The notes under the pieces: generated by a model
The model's database searches: none
Seen by the model: only the letters and a program-made list of their open reading frames with translations
Told to the model about the DNA's origin: nothing
From: a virus
Lineage: Duplodnaviria; Caudoviricetes
DNA: 64,000 bases
Strand: one strand, 5' to 3'
Virus record (IMG/VR): IMGVR_UViG_3300025372_000001
Part shown: positions 7,950 through 64,000 of the stretch, piece by piece
Layout of the letters: each line of letters begins with the position of its first letter
How positions within the stretch are numbered: position 1 is the first letter of the stretch
Made by a program: the position numbers and the translations under genes

Positions 7950-8460
7950 TTTGCTATATCAATATAAAATGTGTGAGGAGAACGGCCATGATTGGAGTAT
8001 CTCATTTGAGAAAACTCAACAATGTACTAAGTGTAGAGGAATACGATTTCGTGAAAATGGGTTATCTTTTTTAGATAATTTTCAAAAATCAGCTAAAGAT
8101 GAATTGGATAAAATACTATCTAATCCTTTTCATAAAAAGTTATATAATTATATTCGCAATGACTTATCTGGTATTCTTAACGGTTTAGGAGATAAATTTG
8201 CCACTTTTGAATATAACGATTTTCTAATATCAGAAAAGTTTCAGATGAAGATGGTGGAATTATTTCAGTTAAATAATTTTCATGAACAGCGTTTTGATAA
8301 AAGAAAGTTAAAAGAAGAAATAATAGATTTTTTGATGGAATCACAGTTAAATGAAGAGTTTATTATTGGCGATAAACAAGTGTCTTTCTTTGATATTTGG
8401 CCATTTAATGATAGAGAGTTGAATTTTTTTACATATATTAAAAATAATTATGAAATTTAA
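7942..8460 (+). CDS. hypothetical protein with N-terminal Zn-ribbon-like Cys motif
   Basis: CEENGH...CTKC; AGGAGG upstream of ATG 7942. Confidence 0.7.
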   Translation: MIDLLYQYKMCEENGHDWSISFEKTQQCTKCRGIRFRENGLSFLDNFQKSAKDELDKILSNPFHKKLYNYIRNDLSGILNGLGDKFATFEYNDFLISEKFQMKMVELFQLNNFHEQRFDKRKLKEEIIDFLMESQLNEEFIIGDKQVSFFDIWPFNDRELNFFTYIKNNYEI

Positions 8461-10861: not shown

Positions 10862-11002
10862 ACAAAGTGTAACTCTTGAAGAAGCTCTTACTCAAGTAAG
10901 GAAATCTGAAGAAGTACAACGGAAAGCATTTGAAGAAAAACGAAAGAAACAAAGAAACGGATTAATAAGAAGCGGAGAAGCGCATAAAGAAACCGAAAAG
11001 AT

Positions 11003-11031
11003 TTGACTCAAACCCATAAACATGTTATAAT
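11003..11031 (+). promoter_or_regulatory. sigma70-type early promoter
   Basis: TTGACT-17nt-TATAAT with extended TG; ATG 8 nt downstream. Confidence 0.85.
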
Positions 11032-11039
11032 AACTCACG

Positions 11040-13034
11040 ATGAAAATCATTCTTGAAAAAACACAAAACTCTATTAATAAGCCGACTAACTATATCTTTG
11101 TCGGGGACTGCTCAGGCTCCATGTGGTCTTCAATTAAGACTCTCAGAGATACATTGCTTGCCACTAAGAATTTAATTGGGCCACAAGACACTGTTTCCCT
11201 TGGCTGGTTCAGTGGCTATAATAAATTTGACTGGATCATTAAAGGTGCATCTAATCTCACAAACTTTGATGCCCTAATTGAACAAAACGTTTATGCTCGC
11301 GGAGCGACACATTACGAACAAATCCTCAAGAGTATTGACGAAGTTATTCAAAATGTCTCCACTTTAACAGGCCATAACAATATTAATTTCATGTTTCTTT
11401 CAGATGGTCAACCAAATGACCGTTCTTCTGAACGAGACATTCTTTCCATTTGTAAAGAATTAAATGGTAAGTTTGCTTCGGCAAAAATTATCGGTTATTC
11501 TGGTTATTATAACCGTAAACTTCTGCTCGATATGGCAGAAGCAATTGGCGGTCAAATGTCCCACATTTCCGACCATTATGAACTAGATACGGATTATAAG
11601 ACCTTCTTCTCTAATCGTGTTCAAGTTAAGAATATTCCTCTTATCAAGAAATTTGATCTAGTTTGGCAAGTATCTACTAACGATGTTCTACTTCTAAATC
11701 AAAAAGAAGATAATTCTGTTGATATTCAAGATAACGGTGAAGAAAGCGAACTATTTGCTATTGATTATTCTGAATTGAATGGATTAACAAGTATCAATGA
11801 TGCAAAGTTTGTTTATTCTCTCGCTTATATTCTAAGTCAGAAGAATAAGGCGAATCTAGGCGTTCAATTACTTCGGACAGTAGGAGATTATAAGATGGCA
11901 CAATCCCTCCGTAAATCCTTCACTGTTGCTCAGAAAGGTGCAATCGAGAACATGATTCGGACTTTTGCTCTTCTTGGCGGAACACCCGTTATTACTGAAC
12001 AACCTAATACAACCAAACTAGAAACCTTCTTAGAAGAACTGGATTCTAAAGAAGTATATCTAGACACTAGTAATAGTGATTATACTTCTATTTCTCGCAA
12101 AGGAACAAATGTTTCTAAAGTGGAATGGAAATTAACGGATGAAAAGGCAAAGATTATTCAAGTTGTTCCTAATGAGAATCGCCCAAATATTTCTCTTCTT
12201 ACTGTTCGCCAAGGGGAAATTACTAATGTAACTGATGAAGATTTAGCCAATAGAATTACTTCTTTTAATGCTACTGCTCCTAATCCTATTATTTTTCCGA
12301 TCAAATCAACAACATATCGTAACTATTCTTTAGTTGCTAATGGTGATTTTAATTTCAAGAAACTTGTTCTTGAGGAGAACGGACAAACTTCCGTGATTTA
12401 TCCTGATAATGATCTTGATATTTTTGACGAAGAAGTGAAATCAATTCATATCAAGGATTTCGTTAATCTTAATAAGACCTTGATTAAGGAGAAAGCACAT
12501 GTATCTACTTTAAACTTCTTTATTAAGAATAATTCAGAACAAAAGCATGCAGAAGATTGGAGAGTTAGTAATTATGGAGCAGAAGGTGCTAAATTACTTG
12601 AAGAAATGGGCATTGATTATGCTGGACGGTATTCTCCTAAGAAGGAATCTATTCCAGTTGCAGAAGATGGTGATTATTTAGAATTTCTTGAAATTGACGG
12701 ATATATTAAAGGAGCATCTACTGTTTCTGCTTCTGCCTCATTTAAGAAGTGGGAGAAGAAAGCAAAGCCAAATGCTGCTGATGAAATATTATATCCTCTC
12801 TTTGAGAAATATACTGAAATGCAAAAAGCATTATCTAAAGAGCTGTTTGTTGAGATGCTTCAAGGTATTTTAGAAGGAGTTCAAAAGACTACTAAGATTC
12901 TATCCAGAAAATTAGCTGCAATGAAGTTCTATCTTGCTACAACGAATTCGTGGTTCGAAGGAATTGATAAAGCGGATGAATTTGAATATGATGGATTTGT
13001 GGTGAAAGTTAAAACTGCTAAAGAATATATCTAA
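11040..13034 (+). CDS. large vWA-domain protein
   Basis: MIDAS DCSGSMWS, GATHY, FLSDGQPND. Confidence 0.85.
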   Translation: MKIILEKTQNSINKPTNYIFVGDCSGSMWSSIKTLRDTLLATKNLIGPQDTVSLGWFSGYNKFDWIIKGASNLTNFDALIEQNVYARGATHYEQILKSIDEVIQNVSTLTGHNNINFMFLSDGQPNDRSSERDILSICKELNGKFASAKIIGYSGYYNRKLLLDMAEAIGGQMSHISDHYELDTDYKTFFSNRVQVKNIPLIKKFDLVWQVSTNDVLLLNQKEDNSVDIQDNGEESELFAIDYSELNGLTSINDAKFVYSLAYILSQKNKANLGVQLLRTVGDYKMAQSLRKSFTVAQKGAIENMIRTFALLGGTPVITEQPNTTKLETFLEELDSKEVYLDTSNSDYTSISRKGTNVSKVEWKLTDEKAKIIQVVPNENRPNISLLTVRQGEITNVTDEDLANRITSFNATAPNPIIFPIKSTTYRNYSLVANGDFNFKKLVLEENGQTSVIYPDNDLDIFDEEVKSIHIKDFVNLNKTLIKEKAHVSTLNFFIKNNSEQKHAEDWRVSNYGAEGAKLLEEMGIDYAGRYSPKKESIPVAEDGDYLEFLEIDGYIKGASTVSASASFKKWEKKAKPNAADEILYPLFEKYTEMQKALSKELFVEMLQGILEGVQKTTKILSRKLAAMKFYLATTNSWFEGIDKADEFEYDGFVVKVKTAKEYI

Positions 13035-30480: not shown

Positions 30481-33400
30481 TTATTTACAGAGGTCGATGC
30501 AGTTATCAAAGATTTCATAAGGTTGTTGGCAGCAATTATTTTCCAAATCTTTCCACGATTTAGTGAATCGTGTTCCTGGTAAGGTGTCATCCCAAGTAAC
30601 AGGATGGATACATTGGCAACACATTTGTTCCCAAACCCAACAAATAGGAAATTGATTATCTATTCCTGGTTGAACGAAAGAAATATTTCCCCATGTAATT
30701 CCACTAACATCAGGATTAATCACAGATTGCACATCAGTTAATTCTTTCCATGTATAAGGATTCTTGTATTTGCTAGTAAATTGTGGTCCGCTGATTCTAT
30801 GATAATCCCACGTCCAAATAATATTAGAAGCCGTAACACAAACAAATCTAACATCCAACATCCCCCGCAATGCTTCCAAATTATCCCTAATGATACCAAA
30901 ATTTCTATTAATGGTTTCCCAGTTAACCACCTCATTAACCCCTAATAATTGTAAACCAGATAATGTAGGTATCTCATTACTGTTAATAGGAAGAATAGAT
31001 TGACTAATAAAGTTACCTAATGCATCTGTATTATACACGAACTTATAATTAATATCATTCTTGAAATTACAAATATTATTATAAATCTTTTGAAAGCTAT
31101 TATTGAAGGTTACATCGGAAACCATTTCATCTGCAACAATCTCACAAGCAGAAACATTCCAAGAACTTAAAGTGTAATTAGGTGTTAATACCGAACTAGT
31201 AGTCAAGTAATCAATTGCTTTAATAATGATTCCGTCACAAACAATATATAACTCTTGATTCTTAACTTTAATAGAATTAATGGTTGTAACATTGGTTAAG
31301 GATTGACTACCTAAATATGATCCATTTAGATAATAGAAATACAAAGTATTGCCGTCAAATGTGATGATTCGATAGGAATGATTATCAGGAATAATAAATC
31401 CGGTTCCTTGAATATTGTTTAGAATGTTAAGGAGATTATGGTTACTATCCAGAATAATGATGGTTTGATTATCAGTTAGAATATAAATGTTATCTTGAAA
31501 GAAGTCAATAGCAACAGGCAAGTCGGAGACGGAATAATCAGTAAGAGTGATTGATTGGGTCCAATTGAGATATTTGTTATAAACCTTGATATTTCCGCTG
31601 TCTTTATCAACAACGTATAGATTGCCCGTAGAATCCATTTTAAAGTCCGTAGGATTGTTTAAACGGGTGCGACTGTCTCGTTTACCTACTCCTCCCCAAT
31701 AATGCGTTAAAACCACCGTACTATTCAAAGAATCAATATTGAAAACAAATACCTGTTTAAGAGTATTATCTAATAAAAATAATCTATCATCTTTAACCAG
31801 CATTCTTGTTGGATTGGTGAATAATTCTGCATTAGGAATACGATCAACTTCAAAGATTTCAGAAAGATGAATATCATCATTTTGGAAGGTTACTTTGTTA
31901 TCAGCAAGAAGCACATAATTATCCCCAAAGAAAGCCAAGTCTTTGATATTTTTTAAAGTGTAATTTTGGTATTCGGTTTGATAAGAATTGTCGAATCTCC
32001 ATTTAATAATTCCGCGACGTTCGCCATACCAACTTATATTATATTTCGGAAAAGTAGGATTAACAATCGTATGATTGTTGTTTAAGGTATTGAAATTATC
32101 AAATACTTTATTAACTTGATTATTGAATGTGGAAGCGAATTGCCAATCATCTGCATTGATTCCAATGTTATTGAAAGGAAGAGTAATATTGTCAGGAATT
32201 TCTCGGAATAAACCGGGATTATAATTTTCAAAAGAATCTTTAACAACTAATAGATCAGTATATTTCTTAGAAGATGGCGCATATAACCTATTGAAACTGG
32301 TGACAGAAGGACTGTATGTTCCCGCAGAAAGATACCTAGCAGTAATAGTGGTATTATTTGTAAATGAATATAAATTACCTAATCCATCATCTAATCTATA
32401 AGCATAATAATACCGAGATTGTGGAAAGTTTGTAGTTATATGAACTAATTCCCCGGAAGAAAGAAGATTCTTATTGACATAAATGTCCAATGATGGATAA
32501 TCAAATGCAGAAATATTGATAGAATTTGTTAGGAAATTCTCTGCAATAGGACACATAGTTGAATTAGCCAGTTTCTTCAGAACTGTTCCACTTGCCCAAA
32601 AAGTAAAGGATGTATCAGTATTTTCCTTAATAGATAAAACTCTGGTTGGATTAGAAGTAAACCTGGTGATATATGATTTATCATTTAAATGAACAGGATA
32701 AGTCCGAGAACCATCATTGACCATTAAATCATAATCAATAGAAACGATTTCGAATGGATTATGTTCAATTTCAAAATCAACATAATCGAGTGTTCTATTG
32801 ATGAAGAACCGATCAGCATTGGCTGATAAGGTTGCATTAAAAGGAGGAAGGTCTTCAAATCTTAATAATTGTTTATAGATTGAACTATCATCAGCAGATG
32901 CAACATTATAAATGGTTAAGTAATCTTCTGGTCCAAAATATTGATTAAATGCTTTAATATTGATTGGAGAAGCAGATAATACAGATAAGGCATTATTATC
33001 AATAGGATAATAGAATAAGGAAGAGTTGGAGGTTAGAGAAGGGCCATTAGTTACTTCATAAACATATTGATCAAAGCCGGGAGCAGCAGAGAATACAATA
33101 GAATTGGTATAACAAGGAACATTATAAGAAGTTAATCCGCTAGAAGAAACAGCATAGTTACTAACATTTAATTCTATTTGAGGATCATAGGCATATTGCG
33201 GAAAGCTGATATAATCAAAGGGTTGAATTCCGGTTAGAAGGAATACACACATACTTTCTTCAAAGTTATATGCTTTAAAATTACCGAAGATAGGAGTTGC
33301 TCCGAAAGCAGTGACACTTGCACAAATGGAACTAACTAAAGGCATTGCCACGGATAATCCTGAATAGTTGACATTATTAATTGTCCAAAGAATATTAGAA

Positions 33401-58955: not shown

Positions 58956-59170
58956 TTTTATATAAGGAATAGAAGTATTGGGGATATTCATTACTTCCTC
59001 CACAACGTATTTTTTGAAACGGATACAAAATCCGATTTTCTTCTTGTTTAAATTGATATTTTCCTTCAAAAATATCTTCAGATTTTTCGATAAAGCCTGT
59101 TAAGTTTTCCCATTCGGTTTCCATTTACATAATTTAGCATCTTGCCGAGCCAAAGTAAATAGTAATAATA

Positions 59171-60284: not shown

Positions 60285-61781
60285 ATGGCAGATTTTTATT
60301 TTTATAATAATGGAAGCGGTGACACTGATTGGAACAATCCCAACAATTGGTGGCTGGATAGAGCTTATAGTAATCCAGTGGGAAGTGTTCCTACCCCTTC
60401 TTCCGGGCAACTAGTCGAAATTGATTCTAATTTAGATACCAATATTCCAAATTGGACGTTTGATGTATATATCGGCGTTGCATACGTTACTTTAACATTA
60501 GATGTTGGAAGTTTTGGTACAGTAACTTTGGGAGCTAATTCGGTGCTAACAATTCAGAGCGGAACGCTTACATTAGGCGGTAATCTTTCTAATGGGGGAA
60601 CCATAGATTTAATTGGAGGGAATATTAGTATTCTAGAAGGTAGTATTAGTAATACATATAGTATCAATATATCTGTAGGAACAACACTATTGAATTATGG
60701 AGGAATATTAGATAATAGTGCAGGTTATCTGGTTAACTACGGAACCTTTAATAATTCAGGATTTTTTGCACAAGGCAACTTTTTTAATTATGGAACATAT
60801 ATTAACAACTATTATTATTACAATAATTTAGGAGAAACCGGTTGGAATGCGGGAAACTCTTGGTGGTTCGACCCTTCTTATAGTTTTCCAGTTGATGAAG
60901 TTCCTACTTTTATTCCAAATCAAGATGTTGCTAACATATATTCTAATATTGATACCAATATTCCACAAACATTAAATATTCCTGTCAATCTTTATGCAAA
61001 TTTTACTATAGACACTAGCTTATGTTATATTTCTAGTGTTATTAATGTTTATAACTATAGTTTATTCATTATAAACAATTATGTGAATAATACAGGAACT
61101 ATTAATTTATATAATTATTCTCAATTACAAAATTTTAGTCTTATAGAAAACAATAATAGTTTAATTGTTAATAACAATGGAACTTTTACTAATAATGGTA
61201 AGCTACAAAATAATCAATCAATACAGATATTAGATAATGGAACATTGACGAGCACGTCAGGATATTTTAATAATCTCGGTGTATTTTCTATATCTTGGGG
61301 AGCATTAATTTATATAGATCAAACAAAATATTTAGGAAATTTATTTTGTAATGGCGTATTTTCGGCATCATACATTTTTTATGACAATACTCTACAACAA
61401 GAGATTGCTTCCTTGGATTATGTGTCATATAATCCAGGTATATTTCTTAATATAGTTGCTCCTAGTACTTTAGGTAGTACCATATGTCCCATTATTAATT
61501 ATAGTGCCTTAACATATACAGGGGATCAAGTGTTTTATCCTTTGATTAATAATGGTACTTTAACTACAACTAATACAGTGAATTTAAATCAACCGTTCAC
61601 TAACAATGGTTCTGTTATCAACAACGGTTCTCTTACAATATCCAGCACATTTACTACAGTGCCCTCTGCAACCCTTATTAATAATGGAACATTTGCTTAT
61701 GGAAGTTATACAACAAATTTTAAAGGACCGATTTATCCACAAGTTCCTTCTTCTGCATCATGGGGGAATATTTTCATCTAA
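60285..61781 (+). CDS. Asn/Gly-rich beta-helix-like adhesin / receptor-binding protein
   Basis: Repeated NNGTL/NNGSL; duplicated WW-containing module. Confidence 0.7.
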   Translation: MADFYFYNNGSGDTDWNNPNNWWLDRAYSNPVGSVPTPSSGQLVEIDSNLDTNIPNWTFDVYIGVAYVTLTLDVGSFGTVTLGANSVLTIQSGTLTLGGNLSNGGTIDLIGGNISILEGSISNTYSINISVGTTLLNYGGILDNSAGYLVNYGTFNNSGFFAQGNFFNYGTYINNYYYYNNLGETGWNAGNSWWFDPSYSFPVDEVPTFIPNQDVANIYSNIDTNIPQTLNIPVNLYANFTIDTSLCYISSVINVYNYSLFIINNYVNNTGTINLYNYSQLQNFSLIENNNSLIVNNNGTFTNNGKLQNNQSIQILDNGTLTSTSGYFNNLGVFSISWGALIYIDQTKYLGNLFCNGVFSASYIFYDNTLQQEIASLDYVSYNPGIFLNIVAPSTLGSTICPIINYSALTYTGDQVFYPLINNGTLTTTNTVNLNQPFTNNGSVINNGSLTISSTFTTVPSATLINNGTFAYGSYTTNFKGPIYPQVPSSASWGNIFI

Positions 61782-61816
61782 AAGTTAAAACGAAATGATA
61801 AATAGATACTAAGATC

Positions 61817-62092
61817 ATGGCTCAAATTACTTCTTCAACTCCTATCAGTGCTGCTCCTTTTAATCAATATTGGGTTCAGTCTTTAAACATCAATGGTTCT
61901 CCTGCCGGTAAAACAACTGCAACTGTTATGCTTAAACCCTTCAATGGTACATTAACTCTTGATTCTTTCAAGGTTCTAAACATTCCTGATGTATTTGGGC
62001 TTGCTGCCACTGATCCAACTTTTGCTGCCGTAGTTACTAGCTTAATCAACGAAATTGAACGTCAGGCAAAACTTAAAGGTGTAATTTCTTAA
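61817..62092 (+). CDS. small late virion protein
   Basis: TAAATA 61799-61804. Confidence 0.65.
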   Translation: MAQITSSTPISAAPFNQYWVQSLNINGSPAGKTTATVMLKPFNGTLTLDSFKVLNIPDVFGLAATDPTFAAVVTSLINEIERQAKLKGVIS

Positions 62093-62361
62093 ACAGCAAC
62101 AGGCATTGTTACTTTGCCCAAAGATTGATAGTTTTCTAAAATAGAATCAGAATATTGCCAATCAAAAATGTTAGTAAAATTCGGAGTTTGAATTCGTGGT
62201 AATTCAAACTCCGTTTTTCTTTTTAAGATTTCTTCAACTCCATCCAATTGATTTTCATAGATATGAACATTGGAAAGAAATCCGGTTAACATACCTTCTT
62301 CCAGGCATGATTCTTTTGCAAGAATATTTCATTTATTAAAGGGAATACCATAAATATAATC
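62089..62361 (-). pseudogene. thyA: 3' remnant of thymidylate synthase A
   Basis: One frame reads DYIYGIPFNK*NILAKESCLEEGMLTGFLSNVHIYENQ...IFDW...LENY...MPVAV; in-frame TGA 62329-62331 and about six codons missing relative to ThyA. Confidence 0.85.
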
Positions 62362-63126
62362 ATGGACAAGATAAAAGGAATATATGCAATAGTTAATATA
62401 GTAAATCATAAAAAATACATAGGTAGTTCGAAAAATATTAAGAAAAGATGGACTTCGCACAAAACTCGCCTCAATAGTAATATACATCATTCGGATTTCA
62501 TGCAAAGAGCATGGAACAAATACGGTAAAGACAATTTCAAGTTAACGATATTGGAAGTTTTAGATGTAGAAAGTAGTGCTAATGATTTGTTTGCTAAAGA
62601 ACAAGAATGGATTAATAAGTTAAATCCAGAATATAATGTAGGATCAGTTGGCGGGGGAGATAATTTGACTAATCATCCTCGTCGAGAGGAAATTATTGAA
62701 AAAATAACTAAATCTTCTCAAGAAAGAATGGATAATATGACCGAAGAGGATAAAGAGAAAATGCGTCAAAATTCTTTAGGTGATAAAAATCCTAATTGGA
62801 GAGGTGGAATATCAAAGATTAAAGGAGCATGTGTGGATTGCGGAACAGAAATTTGGAAAGATCGTATAAGATGTGTTCTATGTTCAAAAAAAGGAACAAA
62901 TAACCCTTTTTTCGGAAAACAGCATTCTGAAGAAACAAAAAAGAAAATGACAGATTCCCATAAAGGTAAACCTAATATTGCACAACGTAAAGCAATTATT
63001 ATAGATGGTGTATATTACGCATCATATAATGATGCAGCGTTAGCATTAGGAGTAACGGGTGCTATGATTACATATAGAGTGAAAAAGAATACACCTGGTT
63101 ATATAACCGTTCCCAATAAGTCATAA
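62362..63126 (+). mobile_element. free-standing I-TevI-like GIY-YIG homing endonuclease
   Basis: GIYAI...KYIGSS; HPRREEIIEK; CVDC..CVLC; NPFFGKQHSEETK (NUMOD3); DGVYY..AALALG...ITYRVK; TAAATA 62351-62356. Confidence 0.92.
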
Positions 63127-63807
63127 TTTAAATGCTTCGATGCTATATTGAAACGGGTTTCCATTAATCTGCTTAACAAGATTAAGCATTTCTTCAGCAA
63201 TTTCCCTAATTTCTAATTGGGCATCTAATTTATTACGTAATCCTTGAAAATGTATAAATGATCGCCAGTTAAACATTACGTCAATTTGTATTTGACTGTT
63301 ATATGTTTTGAAAAAACGAGCTGATTCTTTTGCACGTTTTCGCCCTATTACAGGTTCTAAATCTTTTAATGCTGAATGATATAATCTATTACTTAATTCA
63401 GTGTATTCTTGAAGAAGAGTTGCCCAGTCCTTATTTTCAAAAGTATCATTGGTGGTATCATCTGAATTTATATGAAAATATGACGATGATTGAACATTTT
63501 TCCAATCATTAGGAATATAGAATTTATCTTCTTTCAATTCTTTATATCTAGCACTTTCGCCATTTATAGAAACTCCGATTCTATGTTTAAGAAAATGAAT
63601 ATGAGAAGCAATATCGCTATCTACAAGAAAATGTAAAGAACTCTTTTCAAAAGGAGTATGATGCCCTTTTTCCGCTAACATTTTTAAAATAGCAGGGATT
63701 CTTTCCTTTTTTTCATTTGTTAAATTACGTGTAGTACTAGTCCATGCCGAACAAGCATGACTTTCATCCCCGCCATAATACCCAATTAATTCTACTTTAT
63801 TATTCAT
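63121..63807 (-). CDS. thyX: flavin-dependent thymidylate synthase
   Basis: HHTPFE, KHRIGVSINGESARY, NWRSFIHF..LR, AQLEIREIA. Confidence 0.95.
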   Translation of the reverse strand: MNNKVELIGYYGGDESHACSAWTSTTRNLTNEKKERIPAILKMLAEKGHHTPFEKSSLHFLVDSDIASHIHFLKHRIGVSINGESARYKELKEDKFYIPNDWKNVQSSSYFHINSDDTTNDTFENKDWATLLQEYTELSNRLYHSALKDLEPVIGRKRAKESARFFKTYNSQIQIDVMFNWRSFIHFQGLRNKLDAQLEIREIAEEMLNLVKQINGNPFQYSIEAFKL

Positions 63808-63995
63808 TTGTTATTTTTCTGTCTTACTTTTTCTCGATGAAGATTGAAACATTCTGCGCATCTCCAATTACGAATACCATTATAAGGCAAGGTATCCTTG
63901 TTTTCAACAACTACATGAAAAGGAGGTTTTTTATGACACGGTTCTTCATTTGGAAGAATACCTGATCCTACACAAATTTTCCAAACCTCTTTCAT
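63804..63995 (-). CDS. small Cys-containing hypothetical protein
   Basis: ORF track. Confidence 0.5.
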   Translation of the reverse strand: MKEVWKICVGSGILPNEEPCHKKPPFHVVVENKDTLPYNGIRNWRCAECFNLHREKVRQKNNK

Positions 63996-64000
63996 AATAT

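Follow-up and report, generated by a model that had tools for sequence, protein, structure and literature searches.

We analysed a 64,000-nucleotide (nt) stretch (the window) of a freshwater jumbo-phage contig of ~262 kb (IMG/VR record IMGVR_UViG_3300025372_000001), in which the gene for a free-standing homing endonuclease of the I-TevI type lies between an intact thyX and the 3′ end of a truncated thyA. The locus is, on balance, probably the old scar of an endonuclease-driven replacement of thyA by a cassette linked to thyX. ThyA and ThyX are a textbook pair of analogous enzymes, both thymidylate synthases (TS), whose patchy occurrence is commonly ascribed to lateral transfer of an unspecified kind. 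The locus offers a concrete mechanism, in which an endonuclease that breaks the gene of one enzyme would arrive linked to the gene of the other.

Features were called from a map of open reading frames (ORFs) and from Pfam matches on the window. The endonuclease gene (62362..63126, +; 254 amino acids (aa)) and thyX (63121..63807, −; 228 aa) are convergent with 3′ ends that overlap by 6 nt, and the start codon of the endonuclease abuts the last ~75-90 codons of thyA (62089-62361, −). The sequence-only reading had placed an intact thyX where the 5′ part of thyA would be, and the gene is indeed complete: PF02511 (Thy1/ThyX) is covered over 2-188 of its 191 profile positions at 63121-63807(−) with an E value of 1.6e-30, the (R/K)HR...S....ES.RY motif of a full-length ThyX is present as KHRIGVSINGESARY, and the ratio of nonsynonymous to synonymous divergence (dN/dS) of 0.10-0.18 indicates purifying selection. 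What is left of thyA is a C-terminal remnant that matches positions 202-266 of the 266 in Pfam Thymidylat_synt (62089-62292, −; E 1.3e-11), and not the ~264-320 aa of a complete ThyA with its catalytic Cys and N-terminal sites for folate and deoxyuridine monophosphate (dUMP). Its distal part is a 67-aa ORF (62089..62292, −; also matched by PHROG 160) with a conserved core of 65-73 codons that ends in PVAV. The proximal part (62293..62330, −) is disrupted by the stop and the deletion that had been claimed for it, a TGA at 62329-62331 and the loss of 5-6 codons after PFN relative to intact phage ThyA. The same arrangement of thyX, endonuclease and thyA tail, with the same junction and deletion, is common to the window and three diverged jumbo-phage contigs – L030/L084 (IMG/VR, 15 kb), L085 (IMG/VR, 20 kb) and L095 (wastewater, 274 kb) – as a survey for it had been expected to reveal.

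The endonuclease has the full I-TevI layout that had been read from its translation. An N-terminal GIY-YIG domain with conserved Tyr, Tyr, Arg, Glu and Asn (PF01541, residues 5-92, E 2e-14; about 62374-62640, +) contains GIY at 6, YIG at 19, KRW at 28 and EQEW at 80, and is followed by a linker with a CxxC-x10-CxxC zinc finger (Cys 157/160/171/174; about 62830-62883, +) and then by the NUMOD3 minor-groove helix and a helix-turn-helix DNA-binding domain (about 62884-63093, +), with a match to I-TevI_DNA-bd PF20987 at residues 203-241. In PDB sequence searches the I-TevI catalytic domain 1MK0 aligns through its residues 3-88 with endonuclease residues 5-93 (E 3.5e-12), and the I-TevI DNA-binding domain 1I3J matches residues 139-244 (E 3.5e-11); in tblastn the protein is 36-38% identical to T-even I-TevI across 93% of its length. 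The cut made by I-TevI falls at a CNNNG motif that precedes the td intron insertion site by 23/25 nt. The enzyme described here still looks active. Indirect evidence – the thyA linkage of all its sampled relatives, and the CAGCG or CAACG that intact thyA genes have at the right distance – suggests that it would cleave intron-less thyA at the corresponding motif, likewise 23/25 nt before the insertion site.

All six relatives of the endonuclease that we examined (L098, L104, L106, L112, L113 and I-TevI itself) are located in or beside thyA, which supports its membership of an I-TevI family dedicated to that gene. Four of them (L098, L104, L106 and L112; 47-51% identity) occur in unrelated phages as free-standing genes, antisense to an intact thyA and overlapping its 3′ end, and the fifth (L113; 42% identity) is encoded by an intron in a metagenomic thyA at G|VPFN. 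The td intron insertion site, G|LPFN, was confirmed on the td gene of phage TuIa, and G|xPFN on the L113 thyA. The usual layout of the family is thus a TS gene convergent with the endonuclease, their 3′ ends overlapping, and the window has thyX in the place of thyA. Intact thyA genes of this subtype without an endonuclease read G(I/L)PFN at this site, with CAGCG or CAACG 22 nt before the end of the G codon, and the thyA genes that adjoin free-standing endonucleases have odd residues there (GNNCN, GGCVN and LPYN; L098:6716-7573, L104:4719-5585 and L106:4734-5834). These look as cleavage-resistant alleles would, and are candidates for such. A contig syntenic with L098 (L111) is without the endonuclease, so that the sister clade offers one pair with and without the gene; the idea that the 3′ end of thyA had been co-converted in this pair was dropped, the N-part (60% identity) and the C-part (55%) being similar. 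A six-frame search with hidden Markov models (HMMs) found no further thyA remnants beside the free-standing relatives. Of the intact ThyA proteins, the two closest to the remnant, L107:3077-4681 (534 aa) and L108:248-1714 (488 aa), each have some 200-235 extra aa inserted in frame in mid-enzyme, with a motif W..M..RC...Y..YG..GI.V...W that recalls endonuclease-associated DNA-binding domains; this could be another mobile insertion in thyA.

The gene does not lie inside a self-splicing td/thyA group I intron: Rfam detects no group I intron in 61000-64000, the gene runs antisense to the remnant, and a 5′ exon is lacking. It is for these reasons a free-standing member of the family and not an intron endonuclease. 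It also resembles free-standing mobile endonucleases of the Seg/Mob type in being intergenic, in having a TAAATA motif of its own, and in its conversion tracts and the presence/absence pair of its sister clade. The sequence-only reading had allowed for a thyA 5′ exon and splicing intron nearby, but six-frame HMM searches of the 64-kb window and of the contigs of its relatives found no N-terminal thyA. That the endonuclease was once held by a td-type group I intron, since degenerated, between thyX and the thyA tail is hardly credible. Such an intron would account for a boundary at the intron insertion site, and one relative (L113) is intron-encoded, but the gap between the remnant and the ATG is only some 15 nt, and the nearest relatives are themselves free-standing and antisense to thyA; the orientation of the endonuclease and the absence of any ribozyme effectively refute the idea.

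The junction between remnant and endonuclease lies at the site to which this family is directed. The minus frame from 62361 to 62089 reads DYIYGIPFNK*NILAKES...PVAV (the asterisk being the stop), and it is from G|IPFN (62349 downward), exactly where the td intron inserts, that homology to thyA is secure. The similarity had been said to end exactly at the endonuclease ATG; the boundary is indeed beside the ATG, but secure homology stops ~15 nt short of it. Only the D and G of DYIYG are possibly thyA-derived, because the YIY codons are the antisense of a TAAATA promoter motif, whose position opposite the DYIYG codons had been recognized correctly. This motif, ATAAATA (62350..62356, +), is 5 nt ahead of the endonuclease ATG, and the sequence from promoter to start is ccaTAAATAtaatcATG. 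RTAAATA is found 44 times in the window versus 77 expected, and ~24 of the copies are 2-12 nt ahead of start codons; in front of ORFs, where it typically precedes the ATG by 5-12 nt, it is 10-14x enriched, and elsewhere it is depleted. Start-associated copies precede structural genes as well as the endonuclease, and the motif has the look of a late-type promoter whose mRNAs would be leaderless or have very short leaders. Example sites are 30482-30488, 59155-59161, 61798-61804 and 62350-62356, with no obvious Shine-Dalgarno sequence.

At the distance at which I-TevI cuts, the 5-mer is TATCT, in codons 3-4 of the endonuclease, and there is no CNNNG, exactly as had been read; the start of the remnant is at most about 25 nt downstream of the position where an I-TevI-like enzyme would be expected to cut. 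The retained thyA half-site GGTATTCCCTTTAATAAAT (G|IPFNK; 62331..62349, −), a putative immunity site and operator, corresponds to the region contacted by the I-TevI DNA-binding domain and is nearly invariant across the four genomes. In a sliding-identity comparison no segment is better conserved than the junction (62326-62385) in any genome pair, and the 45 nt upstream of the ATG are 80-84% identical between the window and its relatives versus 20-40% for other orthologous genes. A junction that retains a DNA-binding half-site and has no CNNNG suggests self-immunity. Autorepression is established for I-TevI, which binds an operator that overlaps its late promoter and resembles the homing site but has no CXXXG (PMC2988022); the 13-mer CCCTTTAATAAAT is common to the window remnant and the T-even I-TevI operator region. 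The enzyme would bind the junction here without cutting it, giving immunity and probably autorepression of the I-TevI style. In the free-standing relative L106, a close mimic of the thyA homing site, TTTTTGGGACTACCATTCAATATG (L106:3960-4000), spans the insertion point on the sense strand 10 nt upstream of the endonuclease ATG and looks like an I-TevI-type operator. The half homing site beside the endonuclease promoter would be a natural case for the origin of such autorepression.

In the course of events that we propose, an I-TevI-family endonuclease would have broken the resident thyA at the canonical site, a CNNNG that precedes the G|xPFN codons by about 23-25 nt, and the break would have been healed by a cassette composed of a complete TS gene (thyX) and then the convergent endonuclease, with loss of the 5′ three-quarters of thyA and retention of its 3′ quarter. 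Later the retained half-site, lacking CNNNG and placed beside TAAATA, would be bound and left uncut, conferring self-immunity and probably autorepression.

A second, nested case is found in the wastewater relative, where the GIY-YIG gene is followed (L095:10751-12338) by a thyX remnant, GTAAATA, an antisense EndoVII-like gene (10928-11521; PHROG 1035, E 1e-20) and a complete thyX. The thyX remnant is C-terminal, 51 aa long and about 95% identical in DNA to the 3′ end of L085 thyX, and the complete thyX is another allele than the remnant. The order of remnant, promoter, endonuclease and convergent full gene is thus seen both in thyA and in thyX, from which it follows that the architecture arose twice, and the nested scars (thyA tail, GIY-YIG, thyX tail, EndoVII-like, thyX) suggest a repeated process. 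L030 has a 181-aa EndoVII/HNH-like endonuclease gene, likewise of PHROG 1035, between a 62-aa gene and thyX (L030:7424-7969, −); it is absent from the window and L085, and L095 retains only a C-terminal trace fused upstream of thyX.

We favour endonuclease-mediated replacement because architecture, family target, breakpoint and the nested second case all agree. The alternative of coincidence – that the endonuclease came to lie beside an already truncated thyA, or that thyX displaced thyA by illegitimate recombination, cleavage playing no causal part – carries only a small probability. Free-standing endonuclease genes do insert in many intergenic places, and the locus is prone to rearrangement, as seen in a deletion in the relative L109 (described below), in an insertion/deletion of a 91-aa flanking gene (p91) and in the extra EndoVII-like genes. 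Chance would nevertheless have had to put the breakpoint at the one thyA site known for this endonuclease family, to draw the enzyme from a family in which every sampled relative is linked to thyA, and to let a second endonuclease make a matching architecture on thyX.

The founding event is ancient. Proteins of the relatives are 61-73% identical to those of the window and synonymous sites are near saturation; since the arrangement is common to all these genomes, it predates the divergence of the four lineages. Relatives with an intact thyA and no endonuclease had been predicted, but none was found at this locus by searching with the flanking proteins in IMG/VR, by scanning JGI metagenomes and protein collections or by inspecting the contigs of the nearest intact ThyA proteins, none of which is syntenic with the window locus. 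The only cassette-less relative, L109, is a deletion derivative and not an empty or thyA-bearing site. It is 98% identical in nucleotides to L085 on both sides and lacks 1.8 kb, from a 59-aa gene through thyX and the endonuclease to the proximal half of the remnant; at the joint (L109:5289-5433) the start of the 'MTWEEAK' gene known from L030 is fused at a microhomology to the middle of the remnant, of which the distal 133 nt are kept. From this deletion it follows that thyX and the endonuclease are dispensable, at least transiently.

The endonuclease has been more recently common between lineages than its surroundings, through gene conversion. In reciprocal best matches the synonymous divergence (dS) between L095 and L085 is 0.19 for the endonuclease against about 0.8 for the background, 0.88 for thyX and 1.03 for the remnant; between L084 and L085 it is 0.40 for both thyX and the endonuclease against a background of 0.6-0.9; and between L095 and L084 it is 0.12-0.18 for genes beyond thyX and 0.49 for the endonuclease. 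By sliding identity, two breakpoints fall within the remnant (~62180 and ~62290) and one within the endonuclease (~62830), and this dS mosaic with its tracts identifies the endonuclease region as a gene-conversion hotspot. The thyX and endonuclease genes had been regarded as a travelling cassette; the dS values for L095 and L085 show that they have not always moved together. Alleles of thyX appear to have been exchanged across phage groups. The 29 phage thyX homologues come from loci that have only thyX in common with this phage. A thyX tree is poorly resolved and speaks neither for nor against a single origin of the four cassette thyX genes. The window ThyX is 74% identical to that of an unrelated freshwater phage contig (L001) versus about 70-73% to those of its own relatives, and the middle part of L030/L085 thyX is very close to L002/L003.

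Homing of the cassette today into the intact thyA of co-infecting relatives, with the tail acting as a downstream homology arm that is re-derived each time, seems to us rather doubtful. It would explain why stop, frameshift and deletion occur only in the 15 or so codons next to the endonuclease, which would always be co-converted from the donor, and why the distal part is pristine, why breakpoints fall within the remnant, and why the remnants of L030 and L085 differ by a dS of 1.2-1.35 versus 0.4 for the cassette. In the same vein, an intact thyA (P0287) is 69-72% identical to some remnants, to which the window's remnant is 61-67% identical, and the remnant ORFs of the four genomes differ in their start codons (ATG, TTG, TTG and ATG at four different positions). 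Against it stand the lack of any syntenic intact thyA in the collections searched, the presence of the same truncation in all four full genomes and the nature of L109; moreover, the window's endonuclease and thyX are as diverged from the others as is the genome background, so that the spread was not recent, and the mosaic is explicable by exchange among cassette-bearing genomes alone.

Old replacement, the reading that we prefer, also has points that count against it. Two orders of events would fit, capture of the cassette in one step or insertion of the endonuclease into thyA followed by later replacement of the 5′ part with thyX. In contrast to the operators of I-TevI and L106, the half-site stands inverted with respect to the endonuclease gene, and promoter or 5′-end requirements alone could account for the invariance of the junction. 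For a functional tail, the variable start codon is a difficulty, as are the lack of a TAAATA motif or evident ribosome-binding site upstream of the remnant ORF and an AlphaFold2 model of the remnant with no confident fold (predicted local distance difference test score 46), obtained from an alignment of only four sequences. The gene-replacement interpretation first offered is partly supported, by the architecture, the family target, the breakpoint and the nested parallel. Our reading differs from it in two respects, the selection acting on the thyA tail and the failure of our searches to find a syntenic relative with an intact thyA.

This tail had been taken to be simply a destroyed gene. In its proximal part the window has the TGA stop and has lost 3 nt, L030 and L085 are frameshifted by 1 nt and L095 has an uninterrupted frame; the distal 65-73 codons are under purifying selection and are not decaying. 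The ratio of nonsynonymous to synonymous differences per site (pN/pS) over 73 codons is 0.22-0.46 in 6/6 pairs (Fisher p 5e-4 to 4e-10), and the distance-corrected dN/dS of 0.11-0.25 in three pairs compares with 0.10-0.18 for thyX and 0.22-0.26 for the endonuclease. Between L030 and L095, codons 1-53 show 11 synonymous and 0 replacement changes; the chance of the frame staying open under neutral change of the observed size is 0.02-0.14 per lineage, and neither the His nor the Tyr of SNVH.Y varies. That a fragment of 65-73 codons without the catalytic cysteine should be selected at the protein level across lineages near synonymous saturation is a puzzle. Translation into a small protein is our preferred explanation, and repeated re-sampling of the distal tail from intact thyA during homing is less likely. 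Another ORF, antisense across the 5′ end of the endonuclease, is open in 4/4 genomes with a pN/pS of about 0.7, which is the expectation for a mirror frame, and was rejected as a gene.

The tail might alternatively assemble with an N-terminal ThyA encoded elsewhere in the ~262-kb genome, like the MobE-split NrdA of phage Aeh1, but this we regard as very unlikely. Purifying selection does hold the dUMP-contacting His and Tyr of SNVH.Y invariant, and genes split by endonucleases that still function are known (PMC2988022). No N-terminal thyA is present in the 64-kb window or in 13-20 kb of the three relatives, however, and none from these genomes is among the best 120 homologues of the ThyA N-terminus; the intact thyX would make ThyA redundant, and in 3/4 genomes a stop or frameshift breaks the link to the PFN asparagine. 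More tentatively, and as a possibility that we hold below an even chance, homing endonucleases may drive non-orthologous gene displacement, a cassette of TS gene and endonuclease overwriting the front of whichever TS gene is cut – thyA by thyX here, thyX by another thyX in L095 – and the tail becoming a selected working part. Its proximal portion would then serve as operator and immunity site, and its distal portion as a small protein or homology arm.

The locus shares with I-TevI of the T4/T-even td intron the protein architecture, thyA as the target gene, the G|xPFN boundary and a TAAATA late-type promoter directly upstream with homing-site-like sequence beside it. It differs in having no ribozyme, in its antisense orientation to the thyA remnant, in the replacement of the host gene by an unrelated thyX in place of restoration by splicing, and in an operator-like site that is a leftover of the true target and inverted relative to the endonuclease gene. 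SegB, SegF and SegG of T4 and MobE (reviewed in PMC2988022) are likewise stand-alone genes with their own late promoters, an endonuclease-centred mosaic and, as in the sister clade here, presence/absence; unlike these, the endonuclease described here is flanked by a complete analogous gene and a truncated target, and its cargo substitutes for the function of the destroyed gene. The nrdA gene of Aeromonas phage Aeh1 split by MobE and the 'fractured genes' (Dassa et al. 2009, PMC2677866) also have an endonuclease within a nucleotide-metabolism gene at a conserved site and a downstream piece kept as an ORF, but both halves of those genes survive and come together again, as polypeptides or through split inteins, whereas the locus described here has lost the upstream half and has no intein. 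F-CphI beside cyanophage psbA, which acts in collaborative homing (enzyme family, PMC6083498), is also free-standing and adjoins the gene whose intron-insertion site it cleaves; L098, L104, L106 and L112 are the thyA/GIY-YIG counterpart of this layout, and the second endonuclease of L095 and L030 matches the EndoVII-type PHROG 1035. F-CphI differs in fold and in target gene, and its target is not replaced by an analogue. We found no description of a thyX/thyA case of intronless homing in the searchable literature, and intronless homing with a functional analogue as cargo is what is new here.

A DNA search of GenBank phages yields no close relative of the window, and a search for RNA evidence met the sequence solely in freshwater DNA metagenomes. 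Upstream of thyX is a 63-aa Cys-rich gene (63804..63995, −) that is conserved in L030 and L085. At the other end of the locus, a 91-aa gene with no assigned function (61817..62092, +) is convergent with the remnant and overlaps it by 4 nt; it is present in L085 and absent from L030 and L095. Within the remnant, a perfect 13-bp hairpin followed by a T-run (62182..62213, +; hairpin z −3.65) is likely the terminator of a convergent late operon that ends with this 91-aa gene. L085 has a perfect 13-bp hairpin and T-run in its remnant (8179-8210, −) at other codons than in the window, L095 holds an 11-bp version of the L085 hairpin, and the 13-bp hairpins of the window and L085 are both on the strand of the convergent 91-aa gene. 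The remnant hairpins are probably independently evolved terminators written into a conserved reading frame. The genomes of the window and its relatives carry many endonuclease genes, and in L095 a 267-aa gene beside the clamp-loader gene (L095:5871-6674), absent from that position in the window's genome, has a faint LAGLIDADG_3 match.

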